Sequence record: LC739536.1
DNA: 64,000 bases
From: Escherichia phage phiWec187
Strand: one strand, 5' to 3'
How positions within the stretch are numbered: the first letter of the stretch is position 1; every line of letters starts with the position of its first letter. Of the stretch, positions 11,277 to 26,377 are shown piece after piece. The notes below the pieces were generated by a model. It was not told where the DNA came from. It made no database searches and saw only the letters and a program-made list of their open reading frames with translations. The translations under genes were made by a program, and so were the position numbers.

Positions 11277-12161
11277 TTATTTTTGAATAGTTGACTTAAT
11301 AAGGTCTTGCATAATACCACGGATTTCATTAAAGCACAGAAGAACAGATGCTTCAAAAGATCCTTCTTCATCGTTAAAGTATTTAGGGAATTTAATACCA
11401 CTCAACTTAAATTCTTTATCAACAATAAAGTTAACGAAACCGTCATATTCCAGGCCAATGGCAACAACGTGCTTACCATCTTCCATAAGTTCTACTGCAC
11501 GAGATTCATAAAGGGATTCTTTACTCCATACAACCACACCTTCCGAATCTTCAAGTTTAATATAATTACCAAGGGTCAGTCGTTCAGCCTCATGTTCTTC
11601 TAAGATGGTATCAAAACCTTTAATAATGGCTTCTTCGTGTACACTAAACGGCAGGACTGGGAAAGTACCCAACACCCCACGAAGAAACACAGCAATATCT
11701 TCACTAATTTTCTTAGTACCATTAAGAACGTAGGTAATACTGTTTTCAGTGTCTACAACAACATAGTTATAGAAATCATCTGCCTCTGTCTCTGGGAGCA
11801 GAGAAAACACGATATCAGCCTCAATTGCTTTTTTACTTTCTTTGTCCAGGAAGAATTCTTTAGTAGGGTTTGCAGCAATAAACTCTTGTTCCATCTCCTG
11901 GAGTTTTTCATTAAGAATGCGTTTAACTTTTTTCTTGTTAACTTTCTTAACAGATTGCCCTACTTTAATAACCTCTAAACCAGAGAACACTTTTACATAG
12001 GAACCATCATCTTCAAAACGAACAAGACCAATGGTATGTGCTTGTTGACCCTGTGCCACAACAAAATCCAGCGGTTTGTCTGTTACTGTGTTCAGTGCGG
12101 AAATAGACAGACCATCACCAGAAATCAGGGTTACGCAAGATTTGAAATTTTTAGCAAACAT
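11277..12161 (-). CDS. hypothetical protein
   Basis: 294-aa ORF; weak N-terminal resemblance MFAKNF to RdgC-type proteins, not relied on. Confidence 0.4.
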   Translation of the reverse strand: MFAKNFKSCVTLISGDGLSISALNTVTDKPLDFVVAQGQQAHTIGLVRFEDDGSYVKVFSGLEVIKVGQSVKKVNKKKVKRILNEKLQEMEQEFIAANPTKEFFLDKESKKAIEADIVFSLLPETEADDFYNYVVVDTENSITYVLNGTKKISEDIAVFLRGVLGTFPVLPFSVHEEAIIKGFDTILEEHEAERLTLGNYIKLEDSEGVVVWSKESLYESRAVELMEDGKHVVAIGLEYDGFVNFIVDKEFKLSGIKFPKYFNDEEGSFEASVLLCFNEIRGIMQDLIKSTIQK

Positions 12162-12485: not shown

Positions 12486-13208
12486 TTAAGCAATGATTGC
12501 TGCGATATTAGGTTTAACAAAGGTAGATGGTTTCATAATTTTACCTTTGTCATCAAAGAATACGTACACCTTTTGAACTTCGTTATATACAGCATGTACC
12601 CCAGTATAAGAACCTTCTGCACGATCTTTGCTTCGCATCTCGATAGCATCGCACTCTTTTTCAAGAGCTTCAATAATATCCTTAGTTTCCCAAATAGCTA
12701 GGAGTTGCTTCTTGGTAGGATACTTGGACTCATTGCTATTCAACACTTCACGCATAACCTTCTTCTCGTTATAAACAGAACGCACCAAAGTATCTCGTGC
12801 CATACGGGTAAGTGTAAGAGACATTAAGGCAAATTGCAAGTCATTTTCTACCATTTTATCAAATTCAATGATAACATCGTAAATGTTCTCTGCCAGAACA
12901 TCTCCTGTTGGCATTTCCAGAGCTTTATCAACACCTTCTTTACCAAAGAACATAAACGCCAGGTAGGATGCTACCACAAAAATATCTGCTGCTGCATCAA
13001 GTAATTCAACGTGATCATTTTCCTGTGCTGCTGCTTGAAACTCTTTAAGTTCTTCTCGTACAAAAGAAAGTTGAGCTTCAAACATCTCTTGAGTAAATTC
13101 TGGAGTTACTCCACCGCGTGCCTTAGCATTCCAAGCAACAATTTGATCGGCAGCTTTGATAAAGAAGCTATTGTCCACTTTTACTTGTTTGAAAAAATTC
13201 TCGATCAT
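12486..13208 (-). CDS. putative MazG-like nucleotide pyrophosphohydrolase
   Basis: REELKEFQAAAQENDHVELLDAAADIFVV resembles the MazG EExxE...D helix motif. Confidence 0.4.
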   Translation of the reverse strand: MIENFFKQVKVDNSFFIKAADQIVAWNAKARGGVTPEFTQEMFEAQLSFVREELKEFQAAAQENDHVELLDAAADIFVVASYLAFMFFGKEGVDKALEMPTGDVLAENIYDVIIEFDKMVENDLQFALMSLTLTRMARDTLVRSVYNEKKVMREVLNSNESKYPTKKQLLAIWETKDIIEALEKECDAIEMRSKDRAEGSYTGVHAVYNEVQKVYVFFDDKGKIMKPSTFVKPNIAAIIA

Positions 13209-13217
13209 TGTTTCTCC

Positions 13218-13424
13218 TTATTTAAAATATTGTTCTAACAAAACACTAATGCGAACTACCGATTCGCCCATATACGCCCCAGCACAGAGGAAAACAACAA
13301 ATCTACAAAAATTGCAGTACCATTTGTCCACTGGAAACGAGGCTAACATTATAATTGCAATAGCAATTAACATCATAAGAACTGTTACTAATACCATATT
13401 ACCTCTTACTCTGCTGGTTCCCAA
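13218..13424 (-). CDS. small membrane protein
   Basis: 68 aa with two hydrophobic helices. Confidence 0.4.
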   Translation of the reverse strand: MGTSRVRGNMVLVTVLMMLIAIAIIMLASFPVDKWYCNFCRFVVFLCAGAYMGESVVRISVLLEQYFK

Positions 13425-14569
13425 GTACCTGGAATCATCTTACGTAAACGGACACCTGTTGGTTTCGTAGGTATTCCACCATCGGAAAACTCTTCATACT
13501 CAATCTCAACAAATTTACCAATTAACATTTCGGCATTTTCTGCTTTACGATAGTTAATGGTTTCATCTGAATCCTTACGCATCAGGAATTCGACTACTTT
13601 ACCATTTTCCATCTCTCCTGTCAATACCCCGTCACCATTTTTATCACGCTTTGCACTTACCACTTTAACTTCAAGCGTCTGACGTGGTTTACGTTTAATA
13701 ACATCATAAGAACGTTTATCGAATTCGTAAACACCTTTTGCGTTACGATACACCACACCTTCCGCTTTCTCGCGTAGGGCTTTTGCATAGAAAGCCTCAA
13801 ACTGTTCTTGGTTTTCAATGTACTCTGTATGTACTACACAAATAAGTTCATCTAAACCTTTATCTTCAACAACTTCTTTTAGAGCAGCCAAAACTTGAAC
13901 CCTCTTCTCAAATGGTACAGATGCCACAGGAACATCATATACATAGTATTTAAGAAGCGGTGTGTTAGCATTATGCTTTTTCCACGCACTATTAATTTGT
14001 TGAAGGCTAAGGACACCCAAGCCAGCAAAAACTTCACCGTCAAGAGGATGACCAACTACTTCTTTAATGAAGGTTGGAATTTCTTCCCAGTGAGGTGGAA
14101 GTTTATATACCTCCCCAGCTTTAGATAAACATTCACCTTGCATGTTAATCATTGAACGTAGACCATTCAATTTATATTGTGCATAACCTGGGAACAAAAC
14201 ACGGTCAGCATAATCTTTATAATCCTGACATTTCATGGGTGTGGAAGGAACATGGTTTTCAGCTTCCTCTTTTGTTTTATAATACCCATTCTTAAGTTGC
14301 TTTGTCCATTTGGCAAGAGCTTCTATTTCAGCTTGTTCTTCTGCTGTTGTTTCATTTGAGCGACCAATATTTTTAGGTTCTGCCGTATAAGATTTGCTAG
14401 TGATCTTTCCACCTAATTGACCATGAGCAACAGTTACAACACTACCTTCGGTATAGACTGACCACTGTCTAATTTTACCTGTAGAAGTTTTACCATACAA
14501 TGTAGGATTAGTTTGTTTCATCTTTAACCTCCAGTTGCGAAAGAACCCATTTAGCCATTTCAATTTCAC
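13406..14569 (-). CDS. ATP-dependent polynucleotide ligase (nucleotidyltransferase superfamily)
   Basis: Motif I KLNGLR, motif III LDGEVF, motif IV EGVVYR, motif V DVIKRK in correct order and spacing. Confidence 0.55.
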   Translation of the reverse strand: MKLKWLNGFFRNWRLKMKQTNPTLYGKTSTGKIRQWSVYTEGSVVTVAHGQLGGKITSKSYTAEPKNIGRSNETTAEEQAEIEALAKWTKQLKNGYYKTKEEAENHVPSTPMKCQDYKDYADRVLFPGYAQYKLNGLRSMINMQGECLSKAGEVYKLPPHWEEIPTFIKEVVGHPLDGEVFAGLGVLSLQQINSAWKKHNANTPLLKYYVYDVPVASVPFEKRVQVLAALKEVVEDKGLDELICVVHTEYIENQEQFEAFYAKALREKAEGVVYRNAKGVYEFDKRSYDVIKRKPRQTLEVKVVSAKRDKNGDGVLTGEMENGKVVEFLMRKDSDETINYRKAENAEMLIGKFVEIEYEEFSDGGIPTKPTGVRLRKMIPGTWEPAE

Positions 14570-14711
14570 CGTGTAGTCTGCCTAGTTCATAGGCATCATC
14601 AATATTACCACCAGTGTAATCATCCACCATAAAGTAAGGATCTTCACTACTGTTAGGCGCGTTTGCAATTCTCGTTAGTTCTTCAATAAATGTCATAGTT
14701 AACCTTACCAA
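14508..14711 (-). CDS. hypothetical protein
   Basis: 67-aa ORF overlapping neighbours. Confidence 0.3.
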   Translation of the reverse strand: MVRLTMTFIEELTRIANAPNSSEDPYFMVDDYTGGNIDDAYELGRLHGEIEMAKWVLSQLEVKDETN

Positions 14712-14929
14712 TTATACACAAGAGTTTGAATTTCTTCCATCAAATCTTCAAGATCTGTATCAACATATTCAGAAGATGTTGCCATAAAGTATGTAATCAT
14801 TATAAACCCTTCCGAAGAAAGGGCATCAAGGATATCATTAAACATATCTTCCATTTCAGTATTCTCACCAAATGAGAATAACATTTGTTGGTCTTCGCTT
14901 ACACCTTTAACATAGATGGCTGTACTCAT
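14705..14929 (-). CDS. hypothetical protein
   Basis: 74-aa acidic ORF. Confidence 0.4.
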   Translation of the reverse strand: MSTAIYVKGVSEDQQMLFSFGENTEMEDMFNDILDALSSEGFIMITYFMATSSEYVDTDLEDLMEEIQTLVYNW

Positions 14930-14932
14930 ATA

Positions 14933-15253
14933 TTAATCCTTAAGACGTTCATTTAAATCTGCAATAACATCACCTAAATCTTCACATTCCAGTGTTAACT
15001 CTGAAACTTGTCCACTCAAATAACAAACTTCTTCATTTAGATCTGAAATAATGTTTTCTAATGAATCTACTTGGTCATCATATGAACGTTTTGTTTCTTC
15101 AAGTTCTTCCGTAAGATCATTAATCAAACGGAGCAAAGATAAGATATAACCGTCTCCTGTCTCGTTCCTCCACTCACTTCCGTAGCGATAAATAATAATT
15201 TCACCATTATCAACTACTGTAAAATACTTACCTTCACCAGAATAAATTTCCAT
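14933..15253 (-). CDS. hypothetical protein
   Basis: 106-aa ORF. Confidence 0.45.
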   Translation of the reverse strand: MEIYSGEGKYFTVVDNGEIIIYRYGSEWRNETGDGYILSLLRLINDLTEELEETKRSYDDQVDSLENIISDLNEEVCYLSGQVSELTLECEDLGDVIADLNERLKD

Positions 15254-15262
15254 AAACTCTCC

Positions 15263-15667
15263 TTATTGTAGCTTAAGTGAACTGCGAAGACGTTCCTCTT
15301 GCTGATCACGAATATGTTGTGGAACCTCATGAATTGAATCGTTACCGTGCCTATTCTCCACAACTAAAGAAATAACTTGATAACCAAACTCTTCGGCAAG
15401 AGTTAAATAAGGTTTAAGTTCTTTTTCTGTAGTAGAGGTATTAGAAACAATAATCTTTTCAACACCATACTGCATATATTTTTGTACTTTGACACGACAC
15501 CATTGGTGTGCTTTATGGATATTCTCTTGTTTCCACTCATACACACCATCTTCAGTGTAGTGGTATTGATCTGCCTCACAAATAGGCCAATGATTTTCAG
15601 AGATAATTTCTGCTACTGTAGATTTACCTGCACCTGAAACACCACGTAAAATGATAAGTTGTTTCAT
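15263..15667 (-). CDS. P-loop kinase, polynucleotide-kinase-like
   Basis: N-terminal MKQLIILRGVSGAGKST Walker A. Confidence 0.5.
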   Translation of the reverse strand: MKQLIILRGVSGAGKSTVAEIISENHWPICEADQYHYTEDGVYEWKQENIHKAHQWCRVKVQKYMQYGVEKIIVSNTSTTEKELKPYLTLAEEFGYQVISLVVENRHGNDSIHEVPQHIRDQQEERLRSSLKLQ

Positions 15668-16600
15668 TTAGCCTCCAAAGAAGTTTTCTATTTCTTTACG
15701 TCGCTCTTGTGGATCTAGAGCAGCCCATTGAACCTTCGTAAAGTTATTTCGAAGCCATTCTAGCAAAGTATAATATTCTTCGTCAACAATTTGTTTAGCA
15801 TTGTTTGGGTTGTCCCAAATCATATCCCACTTCTTATTGCCACCACGCATAAGGAACTTCTTAGCAAGATAGTATGGTGACTTAATCTTTAAGAGTAAGT
15901 TAAACGGATAGTTTGTTTCACGAACAACAAAGCCTTCGTGTCGACAATGTTTAGACATTTCAACAACATCTGAAAATTTAATCATCGGATAAACTTCAGG
16001 ACGTTTAAATTTTGTAATAGATGCAATCCCATCAAGAACACCTTCAGGTAACATGAAACTTGTTCCATCAAGATTTTGAATTCTTGCTCCAATTAAGTAT
16101 GCGCCTGGTTCTTCTTCGACAATATGTGGATCAGAAGGATCACAGATTTCAAAAAGAAAAGTTGCTTTTGCACTCTCTGTCCACTTAATGAAATACTCTA
16201 TGTCGTCACACTCGGAAACAATACGGTTCTTTGCCATAATTGCGAAATCTGATTCTAGGCTCCCTGTTGTTGATACAACAAGTTTCCCTTTGTACACACC
16301 TACAGATGCCATAAAACCGTTTACTTTACGGACAGCATCTACAATTTCGTCTGCTGGAAGATCTGTACCATTTTCAAAACGATTAAAGATTTTAGTAAAA
16401 GGCCAAATAACAACATTGTCTTCTGAGTCAACAACCAACCCACGACAATCTAAAAGTCGTTTGTCAACGTTCCACAAATTATCCCAGAATACATTGTTTT
16501 TGTATTTAAGCACAGCAAGACCAGCATACTCTCCAGATTTAACTTCTTTTTTATGCACTAAACCTTTTGCAATCAGGTCATCACAATTGAACTTAGCCAC
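15668..16600 (-). CDS. putative RNA-ligase-like nucleotidyltransferase
   Basis: Motif I KVNGF, motif IV EGFVVRE, motif V LLLKIK with Rnl2-like spacing. Confidence 0.45.
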   Translation of the reverse strand: MAKFNCDDLIAKGLVHKKEVKSGEYAGLAVLKYKNNVFWDNLWNVDKRLLDCRGLVVDSEDNVVIWPFTKIFNRFENGTDLPADEIVDAVRKVNGFMASVGVYKGKLVVSTTGSLESDFAIMAKNRIVSECDDIEYFIKWTESAKATFLFEICDPSDPHIVEEEPGAYLIGARIQNLDGTSFMLPEGVLDGIASITKFKRPEVYPMIKFSDVVEMSKHCRHEGFVVRETNYPFNLLLKIKSPYYLAKKFLMRGGNKKWDMIWDNPNNAKQIVDEEYYTLLEWLRNNFTKVQWAALDPQERRKEIENFFGG

Positions 16601-16601
16601 C

Positions 16602-17153
16602 TTAATCTCCTTTGATTATCTTATGATGGTCTACAACAACAATATCACGCTTATCCATAATAGATATGATTTCGTCAAAATGCAAGATTTTCCCGTGTGC
16701 ATCCCAACCAACATCCAACATCTTCCCATACAAATGATCAGGGAATGATCCGTGAGAGTGTCCGTGTAGCATGATTGATCCATGCCCTTGTTTATTCCAT
16801 GCAGCCATAGGGTAATGGCTTAAGACGAAAAACAGCTTCTGATATTTCACTTCGTCATAATAAATCACTTCTCCATACTCTGCAAGCACTTTTCTGTGTT
16901 TACTGTAATCATGGTTCCCAACACAGTAAGTAATATCCCCTTGGAGACGGGAAGCAATCTTACGGGTATCTTCTTCAGTCCCGAAACAGAAGTCCCCAAG
17001 ATGGTACATCTTTACTCCTGGTGTTGTGGCACATTTATTCCATGCTTCGATCAGTGCTTCTGTCATATGCTCCATATCTTCCCACGGGCGATATTCAGGA
17101 GCAAACTCTCGGATACGTTTGTGCATAAAATGCAAATCACTTGTAATAAACAT
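16602..17153 (-). CDS. calcineurin-like metallophosphoesterase
   Basis: DLHF, GDFCFG, GNHDY and GHSHG metal-binding motifs in canonical order. Confidence 0.7.
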   Translation of the reverse strand: MFITSDLHFMHKRIREFAPEYRPWEDMEHMTEALIEAWNKCATTPGVKMYHLGDFCFGTEEDTRKIASRLQGDITYCVGNHDYSKHRKVLAEYGEVIYYDEVKYQKLFFVLSHYPMAAWNKQGHGSIMLHGHSHGSFPDHLYGKMLDVGWDAHGKILHFDEIISIMDKRDIVVVDHHKIIKGD

Positions 17154-17512
17154 TAGTATAATCCCTCGCTGAATAGTTCACTGTTGTGACCATTTCTTTC
17201 GTAGTTAATTTGTTTGGCGTTATCTGCAATGATATAAGCATCTTTGCGACTCCACCAATTATAATACTGATCAATAAACCCTTGATTATCAGGTAAGCAA
17301 AACAGTTTATCAATCAATCCTGCATCTTTTAAAACATTAAGTTGTGCAGATAGTACAGGATTTGCATGCCTAACACAAGGAATAATTAACTCTTCACCAT
17401 TGTTGAGAATATACTTATTCGCAGCGCATACTATAACACGTTGAGCATAGTGATCCTCACCAATCCAAGTAAGAGGTTGGTAACAAATATCATGTTGATT
17501 AGTAGCGCACAT
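17153..17512 (-). CDS. hypothetical protein
   Basis: ATG at 17510-17512 preferred over track TTG at 17515. Confidence 0.45.
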   Translation of the reverse strand: MCATNQHDICYQPLTWIGEDHYAQRVIVCAANKYILNNGEELIIPCVRHANPVLSAQLNVLKDAGLIDKLFCLPDNQGFIDQYYNWWSRKDAYIIADNAKQINYERNGHNSELFSEGLY

Positions 17513-17661
17513 CAATTTTCTCCGTACTCTTTTAATCTATCAGCGAAAAAACTGTAGTCAGGAAGTAAAAGATCATTACTCGTATTGCTCCAGTTTTCTT
17601 CCTCTTCATAGATAAAACGCCCTTCATCCTCTTCTTGCTCTGACCAAACTGAGTAATGCAT
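17512..17661 (-). CDS. small acidic protein (about 49 aa)
   Basis: Not in track; hand translation MHYSVWSEQEEDEG...; stop overlaps next ATG. Confidence 0.3.
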   Translation of the reverse strand: MHYSVWSEQEEDEGRFIYEEEENWSNTSNDLLLPDYSFFADRLKEYGEN

Positions 17662-17670
17662 AATACCTAC

Positions 17671-18045
17671 TTAATAGTTAACACGTTTAATTTCAACACC
17701 ATAGGATGAAATAAAATTTTCCTTAGCTAACATATATTTACCAGCAGCAGAAGGATTTGATGTATGAACATAGATAGTTTTAAGAGCATCCCATTCACCC
17801 GCGTACAACATACACTCTACATCTAAGAATGCATGATATCCTTCCTGATCTTCTCCAAGATCATTATCGAAGTGTATCTCTGAGATATCATTGAAATTAT
17901 CTTCATCTGAAATAAAAGATAACCAATCCTCAAAAGATTTTAACCAAATGGCATCCTCATAACCATAATCTTTAGGATCTCTTAAATCGTCTAACCAAAG
18001 AATTTTAGCCACTATTAACCCCCTTCCTGTTTCTCTTCTTTCCAA
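17671..18045 (-). CDS. hypothetical protein
   Basis: 124-aa ORF. Confidence 0.45.
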   Translation of the reverse strand: MERRETGRGLIVAKILWLDDLRDPKDYGYEDAIWLKSFEDWLSFISDEDNFNDISEIHFDNDLGEDQEGYHAFLDVECMLYAGEWDALKTIYVHTSNPSAAGKYMLAKENFISSYGVEIKRVNY

Positions 18046-20008: not shown

Positions 20009-20047
20009 AGAGAACATAAAGTCCTAACTCAACTAAGGAGATAAACA

Positions 20048-20941
20048 ATGAAAGTTAGTATTCTACATGGTGTTGACTGTTATGTTACTGATGTAGACGT
20101 TAAAGTCTTTACATTCTCTGGTGGAGAACAACATGTTCAACTAGATACGAATCTATCAGGTTTCAATCATGCTACAGACAGAATCTTACTCTCTTTAGAA
20201 GTAAGATCTGCTAAAGACTTGATGACTTTGGTTATGACTAAGAATGCATTGGACAATATGCTATATCATAAACCATATTGTGTTGATTTACTCATGCTGT
20301 ATGTACCGTATGCACGACAAGACAGAGTGTGTGAGCCTGGGGAAGCATTCGGAGTTAAAGCCTTTGCTTCTATAATTAATTCATTAAATTTCTCACGTGT
20401 TATCGTTGCTGATCCACATAGTGATGTTACTCCAGCAGTGTTTGACAGACTCTGTGTAATACCTCAAGAAGAGATTGCTTACGAAACTTTAAAGTGGAAG
20501 TTACGTATGGAGAATTTTGCTCTTGTTAGTCCTGATGGTGGTGCTCTTAAGAAAATATTTAAATTATCTAAGAAAATGTCTTTAGATGTGTTCTGTGCAG
20601 AGAAGGTTAGAGATACTGCAACAGGTGCTATTGTTCGTACAGACATTTCTGTACAGGATTTCAATAAGCGTAACCTGATGATCGTAGATGATATCTGTGA
20701 CGGCGGTAGAACTTTTATTGAATTGGCTAAAGTGCTACGTGCTCGTAACGCAGGTAAGATTGAGTTATATGTTACACACGGTATCTTTTCTAAAGGTCTT
20801 AAAGAGTTAAGTGAGCACTTTGACTGCATTCATTCTCTTAATGTGTGGGAAGATAACATCCAAGAAGATTCCGGTGTTCTTGTTAAGAATCAGTCAGATT
20901 TGCAACAACAAATTGTATCTCCATACGTGTGGAATTTTTAA
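20048..20941 (+). CDS. prs: ribose-phosphate pyrophosphokinase family protein (Prs-like)
   Basis: PYARQDR, DPHSD, VSPDGG and DDICDGGRT signatures; consensus promoter and AAGGAG RBS upstream. Confidence 0.8.
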   Translation: MKVSILHGVDCYVTDVDVKVFTFSGGEQHVQLDTNLSGFNHATDRILLSLEVRSAKDLMTLVMTKNALDNMLYHKPYCVDLLMLYVPYARQDRVCEPGEAFGVKAFASIINSLNFSRVIVADPHSDVTPAVFDRLCVIPQEEIAYETLKWKLRMENFALVSPDGGALKKIFKLSKKMSLDVFCAEKVRDTATGAIVRTDISVQDFNKRNLMIVDDICDGGRTFIELAKVLRARNAGKIELYVTHGIFSKGLKELSEHFDCIHSLNVWEDNIQEDSGVLVKNQSDLQQQIVSPYVWNF

Positions 20942-20951
20942 ATAATAAGTG

Positions 20952-20980
20952 TTGACAATAGGGAGTATGCTTAGTAAGAT
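20952..20980 (+). promoter_or_regulatory. sigma70-like promoter for NadV-like gene
   Basis: TTGACA-N17-TAAGAT; -10 lies inside inverted repeat GGGAGTAT...ATACTCCC. Confidence 0.5.
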
Positions 20981-21012
20981 ACTCCCACACTAACAAACAA
21001 GGAGACATAACT

Positions 21013-22746
21013 ATGAATATTTTTGCACCTTTTGCTACTGATTGGTATAAACCTGGTCACAAGCAGATGTACAACCAAAATACAAAACTCATTTTCTCTA
21101 ATTTAACTCCTCGTAATGATAAAAACTTTGCACACTATGCAGATCGTGAAGCACGTGGTGTAATTGTTTTAGGTATTCGTCGAGCAGTTACTGATGCTCT
21201 TGTAACTATGTGGGATGGCTTCTTTAAAATGTCTCGTAGTGCAGCAGTAAATAAATTTTATCGTATGTCTAAGAATGCATTAGGTGCTTCTGCTCCTTCT
21301 GCTGAATGTTGGGGAGAATTGCACGATTTAGGTTATCTTCCGCTAGAAGTTCGATCTCTGCCAGAAGGTGTTTTGTGTCCTATTGGTGTTCCTGTGTTTA
21401 CTGTGCATAACACTTTAGAAAAATTCTTTTGGTTAACTAACTATGTGGAAACACTCTTGTCAGATGAAACTTGGAAGACAATGACTAATGCCACAGCAGC
21501 TTTTCAGTATAAGCGTATCGCTATGGCGTATGCGATGGCAACGTGTGATAACATTGATCACGTTAATTTCCAGTGTCATGACTTTAGCCTACGTGGTTTA
21601 AGCAATATCGAAGATGGTTATAAGAGTGGTATCGCTCATTTGGCATCTTTCACAGGTACAGATAATATTCTGGCTATTGAAACTGTGCATGATTACTATG
21701 GTATTGATTATGATCAGTTTGTTGCAGGTTCTATTCCGGCAACAGAACATTCAGTAGCAACGACTAACATTGGAGCTATTGTTGAAGATCTGAAGAAACA
21801 TTTCCCACATCTTAAAGATGATGTTGATGGGCTTCGTTATGTAGCAGAGAAAGAGTTTCTTCGCCGCTATATTGAAGAAATTGTTCCAGAAGGTTTTTGT
21901 TCATATGTAGCAGATTCTTATGATTACTGGGCTGTCTTGACTCGCATTCTGGTAGAATTGAAAGAGTCCATTATGTCACGAAATGGTCGTCTTGTTATTC
22001 GTCCAGACTCAGGAGATCCGGTTAAAGTTGTTGCAGGATACAATGTTGAATCTTTTGATAACTATGAAGACCTTTTAAATAATGGTATTGCTACAGCCAC
22101 TGAAGTAGTACATTTGGCTGATGTTAATAAGTATTACAATGTTCTTCAGGATTGCAGTGTTGCTGATTGTATTGATGAAACTTATGAGATTCCTTATTGT
22201 GAAGCAGTAGGTTCTATTCAAATCCTTTGGGAAGTGTTTGGTGGTACTATCAACCGAAAAGGCTACAAGGTTCTTGATCAGCACATCGGTATGATTTATG
22301 GTGATTCTATTACTGTTGAACGAGAACACGAGATCTTACGCCGACTGAAGAAGAAAGGTTTTGCAGCTTCCAATATTGTATTTGGTGTTGGTAGTTATAC
22401 TTATCAGTTCAATACACGAGATACTTTTGGTTTTGCTGTTAAAGCAACAGGTAGTATCATCGGTGAACACGAAATTTTGGTAAGTAAGGAGCCTAAAACT
22501 GATCCTGGTAAACGCTCTGCAAAAGGTTTTATTAAGGTTGTTAAGGATACAAATGGTAAACTTTCTCTTGTGGATAATCTTTCTTTTAAAGATATCCAAG
22601 ATGAAGACAATGAGTTAAAAGTTATCTTCAGGGATGGTACGGTTATTACACCACAAGTAGAAGGACGTGATGAAACATTTACTGATATCCGTAACCGTGT
22701 TGATGTAGAGGTTCTTCGTACTATGGGAACCATCCAGGTTGACTAA
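21013..22746 (+). CDS. nadV: nicotinamide phosphoribosyltransferase family protein (NadV/NAMPT-like)
   Basis: 577 aa; N-terminus ATDWYKPGHKQMY is NAMPT-like; own promoter. Confidence 0.75.
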   Translation: MNIFAPFATDWYKPGHKQMYNQNTKLIFSNLTPRNDKNFAHYADREARGVIVLGIRRAVTDALVTMWDGFFKMSRSAAVNKFYRMSKNALGASAPSAECWGELHDLGYLPLEVRSLPEGVLCPIGVPVFTVHNTLEKFFWLTNYVETLLSDETWKTMTNATAAFQYKRIAMAYAMATCDNIDHVNFQCHDFSLRGLSNIEDGYKSGIAHLASFTGTDNILAIETVHDYYGIDYDQFVAGSIPATEHSVATTNIGAIVEDLKKHFPHLKDDVDGLRYVAEKEFLRRYIEEIVPEGFCSYVADSYDYWAVLTRILVELKESIMSRNGRLVIRPDSGDPVKVVAGYNVESFDNYEDLLNNGIATATEVVHLADVNKYYNVLQDCSVADCIDETYEIPYCEAVGSIQILWEVFGGTINRKGYKVLDQHIGMIYGDSITVEREHEILRRLKKKGFAASNIVFGVGSYTYQFNTRDTFGFAVKATGSIIGEHEILVSKEPKTDPGKRSAKGFIKVVKDTNGKLSLVDNLSFKDIQDEDNELKVIFRDGTVITPQVEGRDETFTDIRNRVDVEVLRTMGTIQVD

Positions 22747-23534: not shown

Positions 23535-23610
23535 GGTTCCATAGCTCACTGACGAGAGCGCACACCTCATAAGTGTCGAGGGCAGGGATTGTAACCCTGG
23601 GGAACCACCA
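23535..23610 (+). tRNA. tRNA-Met or Ile2 (anticodon CAT)
   Basis: Hand-folded cloverleaf; anticodon loop CTCATAA; encoded CCA. Confidence 0.55.
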
Positions 23611-23641
23611 TTTAAAAGGAGGTGCTATGCATCTCCTATAT

Positions 23642-23727
23642 GCAAGTGTGGTGGAATTGGTGATACACATTGTGCTTAAAACGCAACGCTTAAATGCTTG
23701 AGGGTTCGAATCCCTCCACTTGCACCA
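23642..23727 (+). tRNA. tRNA-Leu (anticodon TAA), long variable arm
   Basis: 7-bp acceptor, loop CTTAAAA, T-loop GGTTCGAATCC, encoded CCA. Confidence 0.6.
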
Positions 23728-23743
23728 AAACCTAAAAATATCT

Positions 23744-23772
23744 TGACATTTACTTAGTTTTTTGTTATAGTT
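23744..23772 (+). promoter_or_regulatory. sigma70-like promoter within tRNA cluster
   Basis: TTGACA-N17-TATAGT, 10 nt before tRNA at 23783. Confidence 0.5.
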
Positions 23773-23782
23773 ACTATGAAAA

Positions 23783-23864
23783 CGGGGTGTATCTCACCTG
23801 ACTTCTAATCAGGCGTTAACCGAGTAATTGGAGTATGCAGGTTCGAATCCTGTCACCCCGGCCA
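23783..23864 (+). tRNA. atypical tRNA-like gene (possible anticodon TCT)
   Basis: Perfect acceptor and canonical T-arm; stem-loop CCTGA-CTTCTAA-TCAGG; D-arm region too short. Confidence 0.4.
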
Positions 23865-23882
23865 AAAAGTTTTAAAAACTAC

Positions 23883-23911
23883 TTGACAAGCAAGATAGTT
23901 TTATGTTAGAT
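23883..23911 (+). promoter_or_regulatory. sigma70-like promoter within tRNA cluster
   Basis: TTGACA-N17-TTAGAT upstream of tRNA-Ser at 23928. Confidence 0.45.
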
Positions 23912-23927
23912 TTAAAGTATGGTAACA

Positions 23928-24017
23928 GGAAGGTAGGGCGCAGCGGTGCGCAACCAGGTTTGAACCCTGGCCCATTGTAGCGATACGGTGATGGTTCGAC
24001 TCCATTATCTTCCTCCA
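23928..24017 (+). tRNA. tRNA-Ser (anticodon TGA)
   Basis: Anticodon loop TTTGAAC, long variable arm, encoded CCA. Confidence 0.6.
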
Positions 24018-24196
24018 AATTCTCTTAGGAGCTTTATGAATTATAAAACTATTGGACAGGTTGTTACCTGAGTTAAGATTGTAAATAATAAAGTTGTTTA
24101 TGAGTATTCTAATCTTCAACAATCCGAAGATGGTAAGAATATTCGTATGGTAAAAACAGAACAAAAAGATTCCGGTTGTTTTGAATAATTAAAAAC

Positions 24197-24282
24197 GGTA
24201 GATTGGTGAAATGGTAGCCACAACAGTTTGCTAAACTGTCGTCGGAAACGGCGTGTAGGTTCAAGTCCTACATCTACCGCCA
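24197..24282 (+). tRNA. tRNA-Ser (anticodon GCT)
   Basis: Anticodon loop TTGCTAA, variable-arm hairpin, T-loop GGTTCAAGTCC, CCA. Confidence 0.6.
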
Positions 24283-24416
24283 AGTTATCTTTAATGTAGC
24301 TTGTAATCTTACTTTAGCAGAGTAAACTTTCGGCAGATGGTGGCAGCCATTTTACCGATACCCCAATACTTCATAGCTAAGTGCCGCAAACACTGGCTAT
24401 TTTAAAGATAATTTAT

Positions 24417-24492
24417 ACATCGTTAGCTTAGTTGGTAGAGCAAGGTGCTTTTAACTCCAAGGTCGAAGGTTCGAATCCTTCACGATGTACCA
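24417..24492 (+). tRNA. tRNA-Lys (anticodon TTT), tentative
   Basis: D-arm GCTTAGTTGGTAGAGC; loop CTTTTAA with one stem mismatch; CCA. Confidence 0.5.
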
Positions 24493-24497
24493 AACAC

Positions 24498-24584
24498 GTA
24501 GGTATCGCATAGCGGCAATTGCTGGAGACTGTAAATCTCCTGCCCTTCGGGGCTTCGTTGGTTCGAGTCCAACTACCTGCACCA
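24498..24584 (+). tRNA. tRNA-Tyr (anticodon GTA)
   Basis: Anticodon arm GGAGA-CTGTAAA-TCTCC; variable-arm hairpin; CCA. Confidence 0.65.
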
Positions 24585-24591
24585 AATTAAA

Positions 24592-24676
24592 GATGGATTG
24601 GCCTAGTGGTTGGGCGACGGACTGTTAATCCGTGAACGAAAGTTCTAGCAAGGTTCAAATCCTTGATCCATCGCCA
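24592..24676 (+). tRNA. tRNA with anticodon GTT (Asn) and unusually long variable arm
   Basis: Anticodon arm ACGGA-CTGTTAA-TCCGT; 15-nt variable hairpin; T-loop GGTTCAAATCC; CCA. Confidence 0.5.
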
Positions 24677-24680
24677 AATA

Positions 24681-24749
24681 GTGCTTGTAGAGTTAATAGA
24701 AACCTCTAGAATTTTCTAGAATTGTAGGTATCAAATCCTACCAAGCAAA
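24681..24749 (+). ncRNA. degenerate tRNA-like element
   Basis: 6-bp acceptor-like pairing and T-arm-like hairpin but anticodon loop of 6 or 8 nt and no CCA. Confidence 0.25.
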
Positions 24750-24755
24750 TATTTT

Positions 24756-24830
24756 GCTCCTATCGTATAACGGCTATTACGGTTGCCTTGTAAGCAACTT
24801 ATCAGGGTTCGAGTCCTTGTGGGAGCACCA
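24756..24830 (+). tRNA. tRNA-Thr (anticodon TGT)
   Basis: Anticodon arm GTTGC-CTTGTAA-GCAAC; T-loop GGGTTCGAGTCC; CCA. Confidence 0.65.
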
Positions 24831-24852
24831 ATTTAACTCTAAAGGAGTGTAT

Positions 24853-25176
24853 GTGACAGAAAAAGAGTTAGAGAAATATTTTAATATCAATGTTTTCGAT
24901 GGCTTTGATGATATTGAAGATGTTGAAAGATATTATGAAGTAGAGTTAGATAAGGATAACATTGTAATTCTTTCTGCCACTTACGATTGTGCATATTATG
25001 AAGGCGAATCTCACGTTTATTTCTATGATATGAAAACATCTTTGTTTTATGAAGTACACGCATATCATTGTTCTTGCTATGGCTTAGAAGGTCAGTGGGA
25101 ACCTGAAGAAATAGGTGATTTGGACTTTACTATTGCATATCTAAACAGACGTGGTTCATCTACTATTTTAAAATAA
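24853..25176 (+). CDS. hypothetical protein inside tRNA cluster (GTG start)
   Basis: Track start 24754 overlaps tRNA-Thr; AAGGAG at 24842-24847 then GTG at 24853. Confidence 0.4.
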   Translation: MTEKELEKYFNINVFDGFDDIEDVERYYEVELDKDNIVILSATYDCAYYEGESHVYFYDMKTSLFYEVHAYHCSCYGLEGQWEPEEIGDLDFTIAYLNRRGSSTILK

Positions 25177-25190
25177 ATATCAAAAGCCTC

Positions 25191-25220
25191 TTGACAAAGG
25201 GGCTAATAATATGTTAGAGT
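25191..25220 (+). promoter_or_regulatory. sigma70-like promoter within tRNA cluster
   Basis: TTGACA-N17/18-TAGAGT upstream of tRNA-Gly at 25232. Confidence 0.45.
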
Positions 25221-25231
25221 AATATTGTTAA

Positions 25232-25306
25232 GCGGGTATAGTGTTAATGGTAGCATATGAGGTTTCCACCCTCCAGGTGCAGGTTCAAGTCCTGTTACTC
25301 GCTCCA
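25232..25306 (+). tRNA. tRNA-Gly (anticodon TCC)
   Basis: Anticodon loop TTTCCAC; T-loop GGTTCAAGTCC; CCA. Confidence 0.6.
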
Positions 25307-25737
25307 AGATTATTTAAATGGAATCGCTAGAGAAAATTTCTCTTTTCGCTCATGGTTTTCTCCTTCAAACTCTAGCGGTTCTTTTTAAGTGATTTTTTAG
25401 TTTATTGGAGATTCACTTCCTTAGTGTGAGCTAAAATCGAGGAGCCATCGAACTGTCTGATTAATGATTTGCGAATCATTATAGTTTTAAGACCCCGGTA
25501 GTTTTATGGTGTACCTCTTGAATGTGAATGATGACGGGTTTATGGTTATCCTGGTCGTTAAATATCCAAAAACCTATGTTCCCCTTGAGGGCTTGCGCAG
25601 GTAATGCCAATAAGTCCTGCATTTTCATTTAAAAGAGAATTTATAATGGAAAAAGATGAACTTAAGTATGCTAAGCCTCTGGCTTCTGCTGCACGAAAAG
25701 CAGTTCGTCACTTTGTGGTAACACTGAAGTAATTTAT

Positions 25738-25812
25738 TGGAGATTAGCCTAGTGGGAAGGCAACGGCCTTTGAAGTCGTGATGACTAGGTTCGATTCCTA
25801 GATCTCCAGCCA
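25738..25812 (+). tRNA. tRNA-Gln (anticodon TTG)
   Basis: Anticodon arm ACGGC-CTTTGAA-GTCGT; T-loop GGTTCGATTCC; CCA. Confidence 0.65.
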
Positions 25813-25819
25813 AGATTTA

Positions 25820-25895
25820 CAGTGCGTAGCGCAGTTGGTAGCGTGGGAGCCTTGGACGCTTCAGGTCGCAGGTTCGAGTCCTGCCGCACTGACCA
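25820..25895 (+). tRNA. tRNA-Pro (anticodon TGG)
   Basis: C1:G72 acceptor; anticodon loop CTTGGAC; CCA. Confidence 0.65.
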
Positions 25896-25900
25896 AATTT

Positions 25901-25975
25901 GCAGAGATAGCTGAGACGGATTAGTGCTACCCTGAAAAGGTAGAAAGGATGGATCGTTACCATCTCTCTGCACCA
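25901..25975 (+). tRNA. tRNA-Phe (anticodon GAA)
   Basis: Anticodon arm CTACC-CTGAAAA-GGTAG; CCA. Confidence 0.65.
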
Positions 25976-26052
25976 AATAACACCATCCAAGGAGTAGACT
26001 TGGTTAACTGTCAATAGCACATTGAGGCTTCTTACAGTGGTGTACTTATTAT

Positions 26053-26137
26053 GGCTAAGTGGTGGAATGGTATACACGATACGCTTAGAACGTATTGCCC
26101 CAAGGGATTGTGAGTTCGAGTCTCACCTTAGCTACCA
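26053..26137 (+). tRNA. tRNA-Leu (anticodon TAG), long variable arm
   Basis: Anticodon arm ATACG-CTTAGAA-CGTAT; T-loop GAGTTCGAGTCTC; CCA. Confidence 0.65.
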
Positions 26138-26152
26138 AATTATTACAGATTG

Positions 26153-26231
26153 TGCGGGATAGAGGAGTCTGGTCGTCCTCGCCAGTTTCATATGCTGGAG
26201 ATCATCGGTTCGAATCCGATTTCCGCCTCCA
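26153..26231 (+). tRNA. tRNA with anticodon CAT (Met or Ile2), mismatched first acceptor pair
   Basis: Anticodon arm CCAGT-TTCATAT-GCTGG; T-loop GGTTCGAATCC; CCA; 1:72 pair U-C. Confidence 0.5.
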
Positions 26232-26289
26232 ATAAATACCTCCCTTCTGGTGTAATGATTAAATTACATTGACACTTCAAGGAACTCAT

Positions 26290-26372
26290 AGCCGGGTAGA
26301 TTTAAAAGAGTATGGTACTCAATATGGCTCCAAACCATAGATCAGGGGGTTCGATTCCTCACCTTGCTGCCA
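26290..26372 (+). tRNA. atypical tRNA-like gene, possible tRNA-Trp (anticodon CCA)
   Basis: Anticodon arm TATGG-CTCCAAA-CCATA; T-loop GGGTTCGATTCC; CCA; D region too long. Confidence 0.35.
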
Positions 26373-26377
26373 ATTAT

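Follow-up and report, generated by a model that had tools for sequence, protein, structure and literature searches.

Organisation of the ligase locus

We analysed a 64,000-nucleotide stretch of DNA from Escherichia phage phiWec187 (sequence record LC739536.1), here called the window, which encodes two ATP-dependent ligases whose motif I reads KxNG instead of KxDG. The aspartate two residues past the motif I lysine (the +2 site) is very widely conserved in ligases. Between positions 13000 and 17500 the DNA is 97-98% identical to Escherichia phage phi92 and other Justusliebigvirus phages, and all genes under study lie on the minus strand of this phi92-like window. Their phi92 homologues are gp091 (annotated as ATP-dependent DNA ligase), gp092-094 (small, function unassigned), gp095 (ATPase), gp096 (unnamed in phi92, 'RNA ligase' in relatives) and gp097 (phosphoesterase). 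Each enzyme adds a new, uncharacterised member to a known family, and both genes are already annotated as ligases. In our interpretation, which we consider very probable, the larger protein is an ordinary DNA ligase of the type known from African swine fever virus (ASFV), the smaller one does the sealing in a heal-and-seal cassette for RNA (tRNA) repair, and the asparagine was acquired independently in each.

A preliminary description of this DNA, made from the sequence alone, had pointed out the motif I asparagine in both proteins and had allowed that alignment might place it elsewhere. Alignments to solved ligases, namely the ASFV enzyme for the DNA ligase and T4 Rnl1 and Trl1 for the RNA ligase, put it on motif I in both cases. 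The asparagine is conserved across each ligase family and hence not a chance occurrence. Close-homologue counts below refer to the query plus its 120 closest homologues, 121 sequences per ligase. Family membership, motif positions and residue conservation are direct observations from these comparisons.

DNA ligase

The larger ligase and the parts of it discussed below are located as follows.

13406-14521, minus strand: ATP-dependent DNA ligase, 371 amino acids, homologue of phi92 gp091 (PF01068, E 1.9e-11; phrog_114, E 5e-75)
14345-14374, minus strand: loop and helix start of the N-terminal domain, K50-N-I-G-R-S-N56-E-T-T (phmmer alignment to the ASFV DNA-groove loop)
14156-14173, minus strand: motif I, K117-L-N119-G-L-R122 (Asn codon AAT at 14165-14167; context AQYKLNGLRS)
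13442-13471, minus strand: motif VI region, P-T352-K353-P-T-G-V-R-L-R360 (aligned to ASFV P-L402-Q403-A-R-A-V-G-F-R)

The preliminary description had placed this gene at 13406-14569. An open reading frame (ORF) of that extent is present, but the GTG at 14569 is only its mechanical limit; the true start is almost certainly an ATG at 14521, preceded by GGAGG with a spacing of 7 nt and used as start codon in the RefSeq annotation of phi92. Because of this start the protein has 371 rather than 387 residues, and we number it from that methionine.

The protein begins with an ASFV-type N-terminal DNA-binding domain (NTD, approximately residues 1-95), which is followed by an adenylation domain and then an OB domain. 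Besides motif I, it contains motifs Ia (SKAGE), III (LDGEVF), IIIa (YYVYD), IV (EGVVYR) and V (IKRKPR) in that order, with motif VI (PTKPTGVRLR) in the OB domain; the canonical order of motifs III to V had been correctly noted before. This order, together with an OB domain that carries motif VI, is the arrangement of a DNA ligase. By sequence, the best solved relative is ASFV ligase, with an alignment that runs from the NTD to the C-terminus. In the phmmer alignment, 'qyklnglr' stands opposite ASFV 'QRKRNGVR', i.e. K151-R-N153-G-V-R. The NTD segment K50-N-I-G-R-S-N56-E-T-T is the counterpart of ASFV K85-N-L-G-K89-K90-N91-A-T-T, and Q63 corresponds to ASFV Gln98. K50, N51, G53, N56, T58, Q63 and A64 are invariant in the phage DNA ligase family, as are K353, G356 and R360 within a conserved P-x-K-P-x-G-x-x-x-R segment near the C-terminus.

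Structure comparison gives the same picture. The AlphaFold (AF2) model has a pLDDT (predicted local distance difference test) score of 92.5 and shows beta strands across residues 281-360. Its best Foldseek match is the closed, DNA-bound ASFV ligase (6IMK/6IML/6IMN; TM 0.78, about 410 columns, E 5e-25), with the NTD included in the superposition. Over the full length, ASFV ligase is well ahead of Lig E and of the T4, Chlorella virus and cellular DNA ligases, and among the best 50 neighbours listed, every one with E < 1e-10 is a DNA ligase. Judged by its sequence and its predicted fold, the 371-residue protein is best described as a phage replicative or repair ATP-dependent DNA ligase of the ASFV type.

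The preliminary description had named KxNG as characteristic of Trl1-type ligase domains, which is indeed stated in the literature (PMC6379707), and had proposed that both enzymes may act on RNA or, as a fallback, that the DNA ligase of this lineage is divergent. If motif I asparagine marked RNA ligases in general, it would be consistent with the Trl1 motif and with the arrangement of the two genes, which lie in one block 1.1 kb apart; a DNA ligase gene is also found near the RNA ligase gene in 36 of 80 viral loci (retrieved via the RNA ligase; neighbours counted within 10 kb). We regard this as very improbable. An OB domain with motif VI is present in the larger protein, as is an ASFV-type NTD with conserved DNA-contact residues; the protein's closest structural neighbours are the DNA ligases described above, ASFV ligase with the same asparagine is a DNA ligase, and asparagine and aspartate interchange among close homologues, with KLDG in a sister clade. 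With such an asparagine in the ASFV enzyme and such interchange within the family, the residue does not point to an RNA substrate in the larger protein, for which the fallback of a divergent DNA ligase lineage fits well. The proposal of an RNA substrate probably holds for the smaller protein, a member of the Rnl1/Trl1 superfamily.

The interchange at the motif I +2 site was followed in the DNA ligase homologue set (45-96% identity to the query), which has asparagine in 107 and aspartate in 14 of the 121 sequences. At least six changes between the two residues are found on a neighbour-joining tree. All rV5-like sister DNA ligases (approximately 35% identity, same NTD signature) have KLDG. Residue 352 in the OB domain covaries with motif I: asparagine is accompanied by Thr352 in 104 of 107 cases and aspartate by Leu352 in 9 of 14, and in the rV5-like enzymes motif I aspartate goes with Gln-Phe at this site. 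The site corresponds to ASFV Leu402 and to human Lig1 Arg871, which forms a salt bridge to the motif I aspartate under the nick (PMC6344480). We infer that the motif I side chain and residue 352 adjust to each other. In the DNA ligase, then, the asparagine is a tolerated, lineage-specific and drifting substitute for aspartate that carries no information on RNA.

For ASFV ligase it has been reported that ATP is bound at Lys151, that nicks in DNA are sealed by the enzyme and that DNA binding requires the NTD (PMC6344480). Asn153 replaces human Lig1 Asp570 and is listed among four 'unique' residues at the nick site; the NTD was called a completely novel fold, and the NTD, Asn153 and Leu211 were proposed as drug targets (PMC6344480). 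By analogy, Lys117 of the phage enzyme would be adenylylated and nicks would be sealed in three steps via Lys117-AMP while the NTD and OB domain encircle the DNA, steps in which we have high confidence. Asn119 would lie under the nick and, like ASFV Asn153 and human Lig1 Asp570, may help to hold the water shell of the catalytic metal, thus doing the job of the usual aspartate.

The phage NTD (14237-14521, minus strand) shows that the 'novel fold' of ASFV ligase is common to a large phage ligase clade, in which the DNA-contact residues are conserved. No papers on ASFV-like NTDs in phages were found in the literature searched, and a search for Asp-to-Asn mutants of Chlorella virus ligase returned nothing usable. 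That features regarded as unique to ASFV ligase are common to such a clade is relevant to where the ASFV enzyme came from and gives convenient models of it in bacterial viruses. A homologous DNA ligase on a metagenomic phage contig (L003, 7983-9079) is split into two ORFs, one running from the N-terminus to motif I (KLNGLR) and one starting from motif III; a frameshift or sequencing error could account for this, or the gene could be a pseudogene.

The two asparagines are unrelated: both proteins are covalent-lysine nucleotidyltransferases with an independent gain of asparagine at the motif I +2 site, since phages with the same RNA ligase cassette carry KLDG DNA ligases. The idea that the asparagine is a property of the lineage, common to both enzymes, was rejected on the same grounds. 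Motif I asparagine is a known functional variant both in a DNA ligase (ASFV) and in an RNA ligase (Trl1), by which the original finding is mostly explained.

RNA ligase

The smaller ligase and its relevant segments are located as follows.

15668-16600, minus strand: ATP-dependent RNA ligase, 310 amino acids, homologue of phi92 gp096 (PF09511, RNA_lig_T4_1)
16313-16327, minus strand: motif I, K92-V-N94-G-F (Asn codon AAC at 16319-16321; context VRKVNGFMAS)
16118-16132, minus strand: D157-P-H159-I-V, after motif III Glu151 (His159 at 16124-16126; located by hhalign and hmmsearch)
15845-15874, minus strand: helix after motif V, Y243-Y-L-A-K-K248-F-L-M-R252 (Lys248 at +8 and Arg252 at +12 from Lys240)

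In this protein, an adenylyltransferase domain of the Rnl1/Trl1 type is followed by a short C-terminal domain of helical structure (residues ~242-310). Its further motifs are, in order, Ia (STTG), III (FEICD), IIIa (GAYLIG), IV (HEGFVVR) and V (LKIKS). A single-sequence phmmer search of the PDB with the 310-residue protein gave nothing relevant, and a family profile was required. With a profile of 23 homologues, T4 Rnl1 was reached at E 1e-10, Asn94 standing opposite Asp101 of K-E-D-G; Trl1 was not reached by this profile at E <= 10. In the alignment of the family profile, 'rkvnGfm' lies opposite T4 Rnl1 'TKEDGSL' (Lys99/Asp101), and by hhalign opposite Trl1 'LKENGCI' (Lys148/Asn150). A hidden Markov model of the family, built from 148 representatives of 50%-identity clusters, gave a score of 62 bits for T4 Rnl1 and of 17-36 bits for Trl1 proteins. 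In a Foldseek search with the AlphaFold model (pLDDT 90), the best match is shared by T4 Rnl1 and the ligase domains of fungal Trl1. As judged from these scores and the model, the family is nearer to T4 Rnl1 by sequence and equidistant from T4 Rnl1 and Trl1 by structure.

The query sequences of T4 Rnl1, E. coli KptA and E. coli LigT were checked by searches. A yeast Trl1 sequence served as a PDB query to retrieve Trl1 proteins; for Trl1 we relied only on the C. glabrata and C. thermophilum sequences as printed in the PDB.

This is a large and almost entirely viral family, for which 6,672 representative clusters were counted at E <= 0.001. A profile scan of genome contigs returned one locus, on a probably viral contig of a metagenome-assembled genome, and is uninformative on cellular homologues. 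KxNG is found in all 121 close homologues including the query, in 147 of the 148 representatives and in 80 of 80 viral loci; the comparison set of T4-type Rnl1 proteins has KxDG in 119 of 119. R53, K70, K92, G95, E151, E222, G223, K238 and K240 are invariant in the 148 representatives.

Two further sites distinguish the family. His159, eight residues past Glu151, lies opposite Trl1 His227, a 2'-PO4 ligand, in three independent alignments; the triad histidine of Trl1 is approximately nine residues past the motif III glutamate. In T4 Rnl1, the residue opposite is Arg166. The site is histidine in all 148 representatives and arginine in 117 of 119 T4-type proteins. After motif V, K248 (146/146) and R252 (145/145) are invariant among representatives without a gap there, and T4-type Rnl1 proteins have His250 (118/119) and Lys253 (114/119). 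Trl1 Arg334 and Arg337 lie at +9 and +12 from Lys325; the register of the helix against phage K248/R252 is ambiguous. The three types compare as follows.

Site after motif III: Pro-His159 in the phi92 type; Asn165-Arg166 in the T4 type; Glu-His227 in Trl1
Site after motif V: Tyr-x3-Lys248-x3-Arg252 in the phi92 type; Tyr-x3-His250-x2-Lys253 in the T4 type; Tyr-x3-Arg334-x2-Arg337 in Trl1

In the aligned sequences the motif I asparagine thus behaves as a subfamily signature that goes with His159, the T4 type pairing Asp101 with Arg166. Asparagine versus aspartate at this position separates two internally invariant active-site signatures among phage Rnl1-like ligases. The T4 C-domain PF20819, carried by every full-length T4-type homologue, was not found in the phage RNA ligase. 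A Rnl4/Pnkp-type ligase fold was also considered for this protein and rejected, as a Hen1-activated module of the Rnl4 type was not found.

Instead, the asparagine might mark a crippled or non-catalytic protein, which would be a pseudoenzyme or would serve as a chaperone in tail-fibre assembly, as in the second activity of T4 gp63. The annotation 'tail fiber protein attachment catalyst' is given to some relatives, and the wide conservation of aspartate at this site in ligases would agree with a loss of function. The annotation is, however, inherited from T4 Rnl1 via PHROG 562, and the gene stands beside end-healing enzymes in an early-type block and not among tail genes. Moreover, Trl1 and ASFV ligase are fully active with asparagine. 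Asparagine as the sign of an inactive enzyme was rejected on the grounds that the 148 representatives, divergent as they are, all keep the other residues for nucleotidyl transfer, and we give this explanation next to no probability.

RNA repair cassette

The neighbouring genes and ORFs are as follows.

12486-13208, minus strand: MazG-like NTP pyrophosphohydrolase, 240 amino acids (PRA-PH, E 3e-7; phi92 annotation)
14508-15253, minus strand: three small ORFs in the interval between kinase and DNA ligase (~62, 74 and 106 amino acids, the last a predicted coiled coil; PHROG families without assigned function)
15263-15667, minus strand: P-loop polynucleotide-kinase-like protein, 134 amino acids (AAA_33, E 1.8e-10; phrog_505 'polynucleotide kinase', 1.3e-9)
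16602-17153, minus strand: metallophosphoesterase, 183 amino acids (Metallophos_2, E 3e-4; phrog_547, E 2e-54; Aquifex aq_1665, 1XM7, E 1e-6)
17153-17515, minus strand: protein of 120 amino acids between cREC and phosphoesterase, homologue of phi92 gp098 (phrog_839, no assigned function)
17671-18045, minus strand: cREC protein (cyclic-phosphate-processing receiver domain), 124 amino acids (PF20274, E 1.4e-14, above cut-off)

The RNA ligase gene is directly flanked by the genes for the kinase and the metallophosphoesterase. The Walker A motif of the kinase is G9-VSGAGKS-T17, and its Asp33 lies opposite T4 Pnk Asp35, which we take to be the general base. The phosphoesterase has the full set of metal-binding motifs (D6-x-H8, G-D54, G-N80-H-D and H-G-H-S-H) and is presumed to be the 3'-end healing enzyme. 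A Pnkp-type set of 5'-kinase, binuclear metallophosphoesterase and ATP-dependent ligase, all with predicted activities, is therewith found in adjacent genes. The cREC gene stands two genes upstream of this trio and is annotated in phi92 only as a hypothetical protein (gp100); cREC domains are predicted to open 2',3'-cyclic phosphates (PMC9503650). The 120-residue protein has no Pfam match and occurs near the ligase in only 2 of the 80 loci, and none of the three small ORFs has a significant Pfam match. The MazG-like gene and a gene for an RdgC-like protein (11277-12161, minus strand) lie directly downstream of the DNA ligase gene.

Synteny and gene fusions were directly observed across the homologues. 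Of the 80 viral loci, 74 have the kinase and 67 the phosphoesterase near the RNA ligase, mostly as immediate neighbours, besides MazG in 12, Sir2 in 11 and cREC in 10. In a phage contig whose ligase is only 49% identical, the genes still follow one another as phosphoesterase, ligase, kinase, DNA ligase and MazG-like pyrophosphatase. Close homologues include single polypeptides of 700-812 amino acids in the order kinase-metallophosphoesterase-ligase (P0305, P0327, P0341 and P0350), and ligase-kinase fusions are found as well. All fusion homologues examined (including loci L042, L048, L055, L058-L061, L064 and L066-L068) keep KxNG, the histidine and the Lys/Arg pair. Because kinase, phosphoesterase and ligase are fused in one polypeptide in close homologues, there is strong evidence from the gene sequences that the three activities would be directed at one substrate.

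In rV5-like loci (L007-L016), Sir2 is encoded between kinase and DNA ligase, and in the relative phage alia it lies approximately 29 kb away. No Sir2, KptA or LigT homologues were found in the 64-kb window, and no KptA or 2H (LigT) homologues near the ligase in the 80 loci; for KptA and 2H these were single-sequence phmmer searches of low sensitivity, which divergent homologues could escape. ORFs for NAD+ salvage, namely a Prs-like ribose-phosphate pyrophosphokinase (20045-20938) and a NadV-like nicotinamide phosphoribosyltransferase (20962-22743), both on the plus strand, lie at a strand switch, and the GC skew changes sign near 20 kb. Fifteen tRNA genes are found at 23535-26453 (plus strand), 7 kb from the cassette, including those for Lys(UUU), Tyr, Asn and Gln, two for Met, two for Leu and two for Ser. 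Under anticodon-nuclease attack, these phage tRNAs could be substrates or back-ups.

In outline, we have high confidence that the RNA ligase would repair anticodon-nuclease damage; substrates and order of steps are deduced from the gene set. A host anticodon nuclease would leave 2',3'-cyclic-PO4 and 5'-OH ends on host or phage tRNAs. The 134-residue P-loop kinase would phosphorylate the 5'-OH, and the metallophosphoesterase, possibly with cREC, would open or remove the cyclic phosphate. The RNA ligase would then seal the break via Lys92-AMP and AppRNA intermediates.

Several points weigh against this assignment of a DNA ligase and an RNA repair cassette. The kinase gives a weak single-sequence match (E 0.02) to the T4 Pnk kinase domain (1LY1), and its link to polynucleotide kinases comes mostly from PHROG profiles and gene fusions. 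The Metallophos_2 score of the phosphoesterase is below the Pfam gathering cut-off. For relatives of the RNA ligase, the annotation is sometimes 'RNA ligase and tail fiber protein attachment catalyst', which would leave room for a second role like that of T4 gp63. In case of the larger ligase, DNA ligases of such size can seal some RNA-containing nicks, so that its preference for DNA need not be strict. Finally, no assays of any member of either phage ligase family were found in the literature searched, and a literature search for phi92 plus RNA ligase returned nothing usable.

Chemistry of the 3' end

The form of the 3' end that is sealed is something we infer from the active-site residues and the partner genes. 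One proposal is that phi92/rV5-type RNA ligases are a prokaryotic-virus counterpart of Trl1, which would need or prefer a 3'-OH,2'-PO4 end and take it up in a pocket formed by Asn94, His159, Lys248 and Arg252. Either cREC or the phosphoesterase would act as cyclic phosphodiesterase, and a sirtuin or KptA would clear the 2'-PO4 with NAD+. We consider such a Trl1-like chemistry tentative and rather unlikely, although with some points in its favour.

Trl1 has KxNG as motif I, and in its structure Asn150 touches the waters around the catalytic Mn2+ and forms a hydrogen bond to a sulfate, which is interpreted as a 2'-PO4 mimic (PMC6379707). His227, Arg334 and Arg337 are the other sulfate ligands, and their mutants slow RNA adenylylation 60- to 420-fold, with H227A being 420-fold slower. 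His159 of the phage ligase lies opposite the triad residue His227, and the invariant Lys248 and Arg252 at +8 and +12 from motif V may match Trl1 Arg334 and Arg337 at +9 and +12. T4 Rnl1, which does not join 2'-P ends, has aspartate in place of the asparagine and Arg/His in place of His/Lys. The presence of cREC in the cassette, NAD+ salvage genes nearby and a Sir2 inside the rV5-like cassette, proposed to be KptA-like (PMC9503650), would also agree with a 2'-PO4 intermediate.

Against this stands the sequence similarity, which is greater to T4 Rnl1 than to Trl1 by the bit scores given above. Basic residues are found at the same sites in T4-type ligases too and may form a general 3'-end binding site; plant tRNA ligase requires 2'-PO4 without the two arginines; and the asparagine, being found in DNA ligases as well, is not diagnostic. 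The constant partner of the ligase is a metallophosphoesterase, and the fused homologues resemble CthPnkp, which as wild type makes 2'-OH ends. Since a single His-to-Asp change switches the CthPnkp product to 2'-PO4, the fold of the phosphoesterase does not decide the 3'-end chemistry. Further, cREC and Sir2 are found in only approximately 12% of loci, and the low-sensitivity search described above detected no KptA or 2H homologue.

If the Trl1-like proposal is true, the junctions of repaired tRNAs would have a 2'-PO4, for a phage sirtuin or the host's KptA/Tpt1 to remove with NAD+. This would provide a natural substrate for bacterial KptA, and KxNG versus KxDG would indicate the 3'-end chemistry of Rnl1-like ligases. 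The apparent match of the phi92 type to the 2'-phosphate residues of Trl1 could thus connect phage tRNA repair with the unexplained bacterial KptA/Tpt1 and with phage sirtuins. A literature search for Rnl6 outside fungi returned nothing usable.

Comparison with known systems

The phage DNA ligase and ASFV ligase (6IMJ/6IMK/6IML/6IMN) have 22% identity and have in common the three-domain layout with an alpha/beta NTD, the K-x-N-G motif and a leucine at the human Phe635 site (phage Leu173). The motif I asparagine, Leu173 and the K-N-x-G-x-x-N-x-T-T...Q-A signature (ASFV residues 85-99) are common to phage and ASFV ligases, with Leu173 invariant in the phage family. The two differ in the nick residues, Leu402-Gln403 in ASFV and Thr352-Lys353 in the phage, and in their eukaryotic versus bacterial hosts. 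In contrast to ASFV Asn153, the phage asparagine is not fixed, with 14 of 121 homologues and the entire sister clade having aspartate.

T4 Rnl1 (2C5U, 5TT6) is the closest solved relative of the RNA ligase by sequence. The invariant phage R53 and K70 correspond to T4 R54 and K75, which act as ligands to the gamma-phosphate of ATP, and both phages follow the logic of tRNA repair with a separate end-healing enzyme. T4 Rnl1 has K-x-D-G and near-invariant Asn165-Arg166 and His250/Lys253 where the phage ligase has K-x-N-G, Pro-His159 and Lys248/Arg252; it also has the 120-residue PF20819 C-domain, which the phage enzyme is without. In T4, ends are healed by a kinase-HAD phosphatase, in contrast to the kinase and metallophosphoesterase encoded here. 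The ligase domain of fungal Trl1 (Rnl6; 6N0T, 6N67, 9QW7) is similar in its motif I asparagine, in the triad histidine and possibly in a pair of basic residues after motif V (Lys/Arg in the phage). It differs in having His/Arg/Arg as triad instead of His/Lys/Arg, with the register unsettled, and in its weaker sequence similarity than T4 Rnl1. In Trl1 the ligase is joined in one protein to a GTP-dependent kinase and to a cyclic phosphodiesterase of the 2H type, whereas kinase, metallophosphoesterase and cREC are separate genes in the phage.

With regard to the cassette, passages of Iyer et al. 2022 (Viruses 14:1977; PMC9503650) predict RNA repair for a neighbourhood with Escherichia phage V5 and Proteus phage Mydo as prototypes. 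The gene set described there comprises a 'T4-like tRNA ligase', cREC, a nucleotide kinase, MazG and sometimes a calcineurin-like phosphoesterase, together with a sirtuin, the latter proposed to remove 2'-phosphates in a KptA-like manner. Ligase, cREC, kinase, MazG and calcineurin-like phosphoesterase are all present in the phi92-like window. Unlike in the neighbourhood as those passages describe it, the cassette of this phi92-like window has no sirtuin, and three small ORFs occupy its slot. The passages of that paper drawn on here do not mention the Trl1-like active-site signature of the ligase. Lastly, bacterial Pnkp (Clostridium thermocellum, Rnl4) and the Pnkp1-Rnl-Hen1 system likewise bring together a kinase of the P-loop type, a phosphoesterase of the calcineurin type and a ligase that uses ATP, and fused close homologues of the phage ligase have these modules in the same kinase-phosphoesterase-ligase order.

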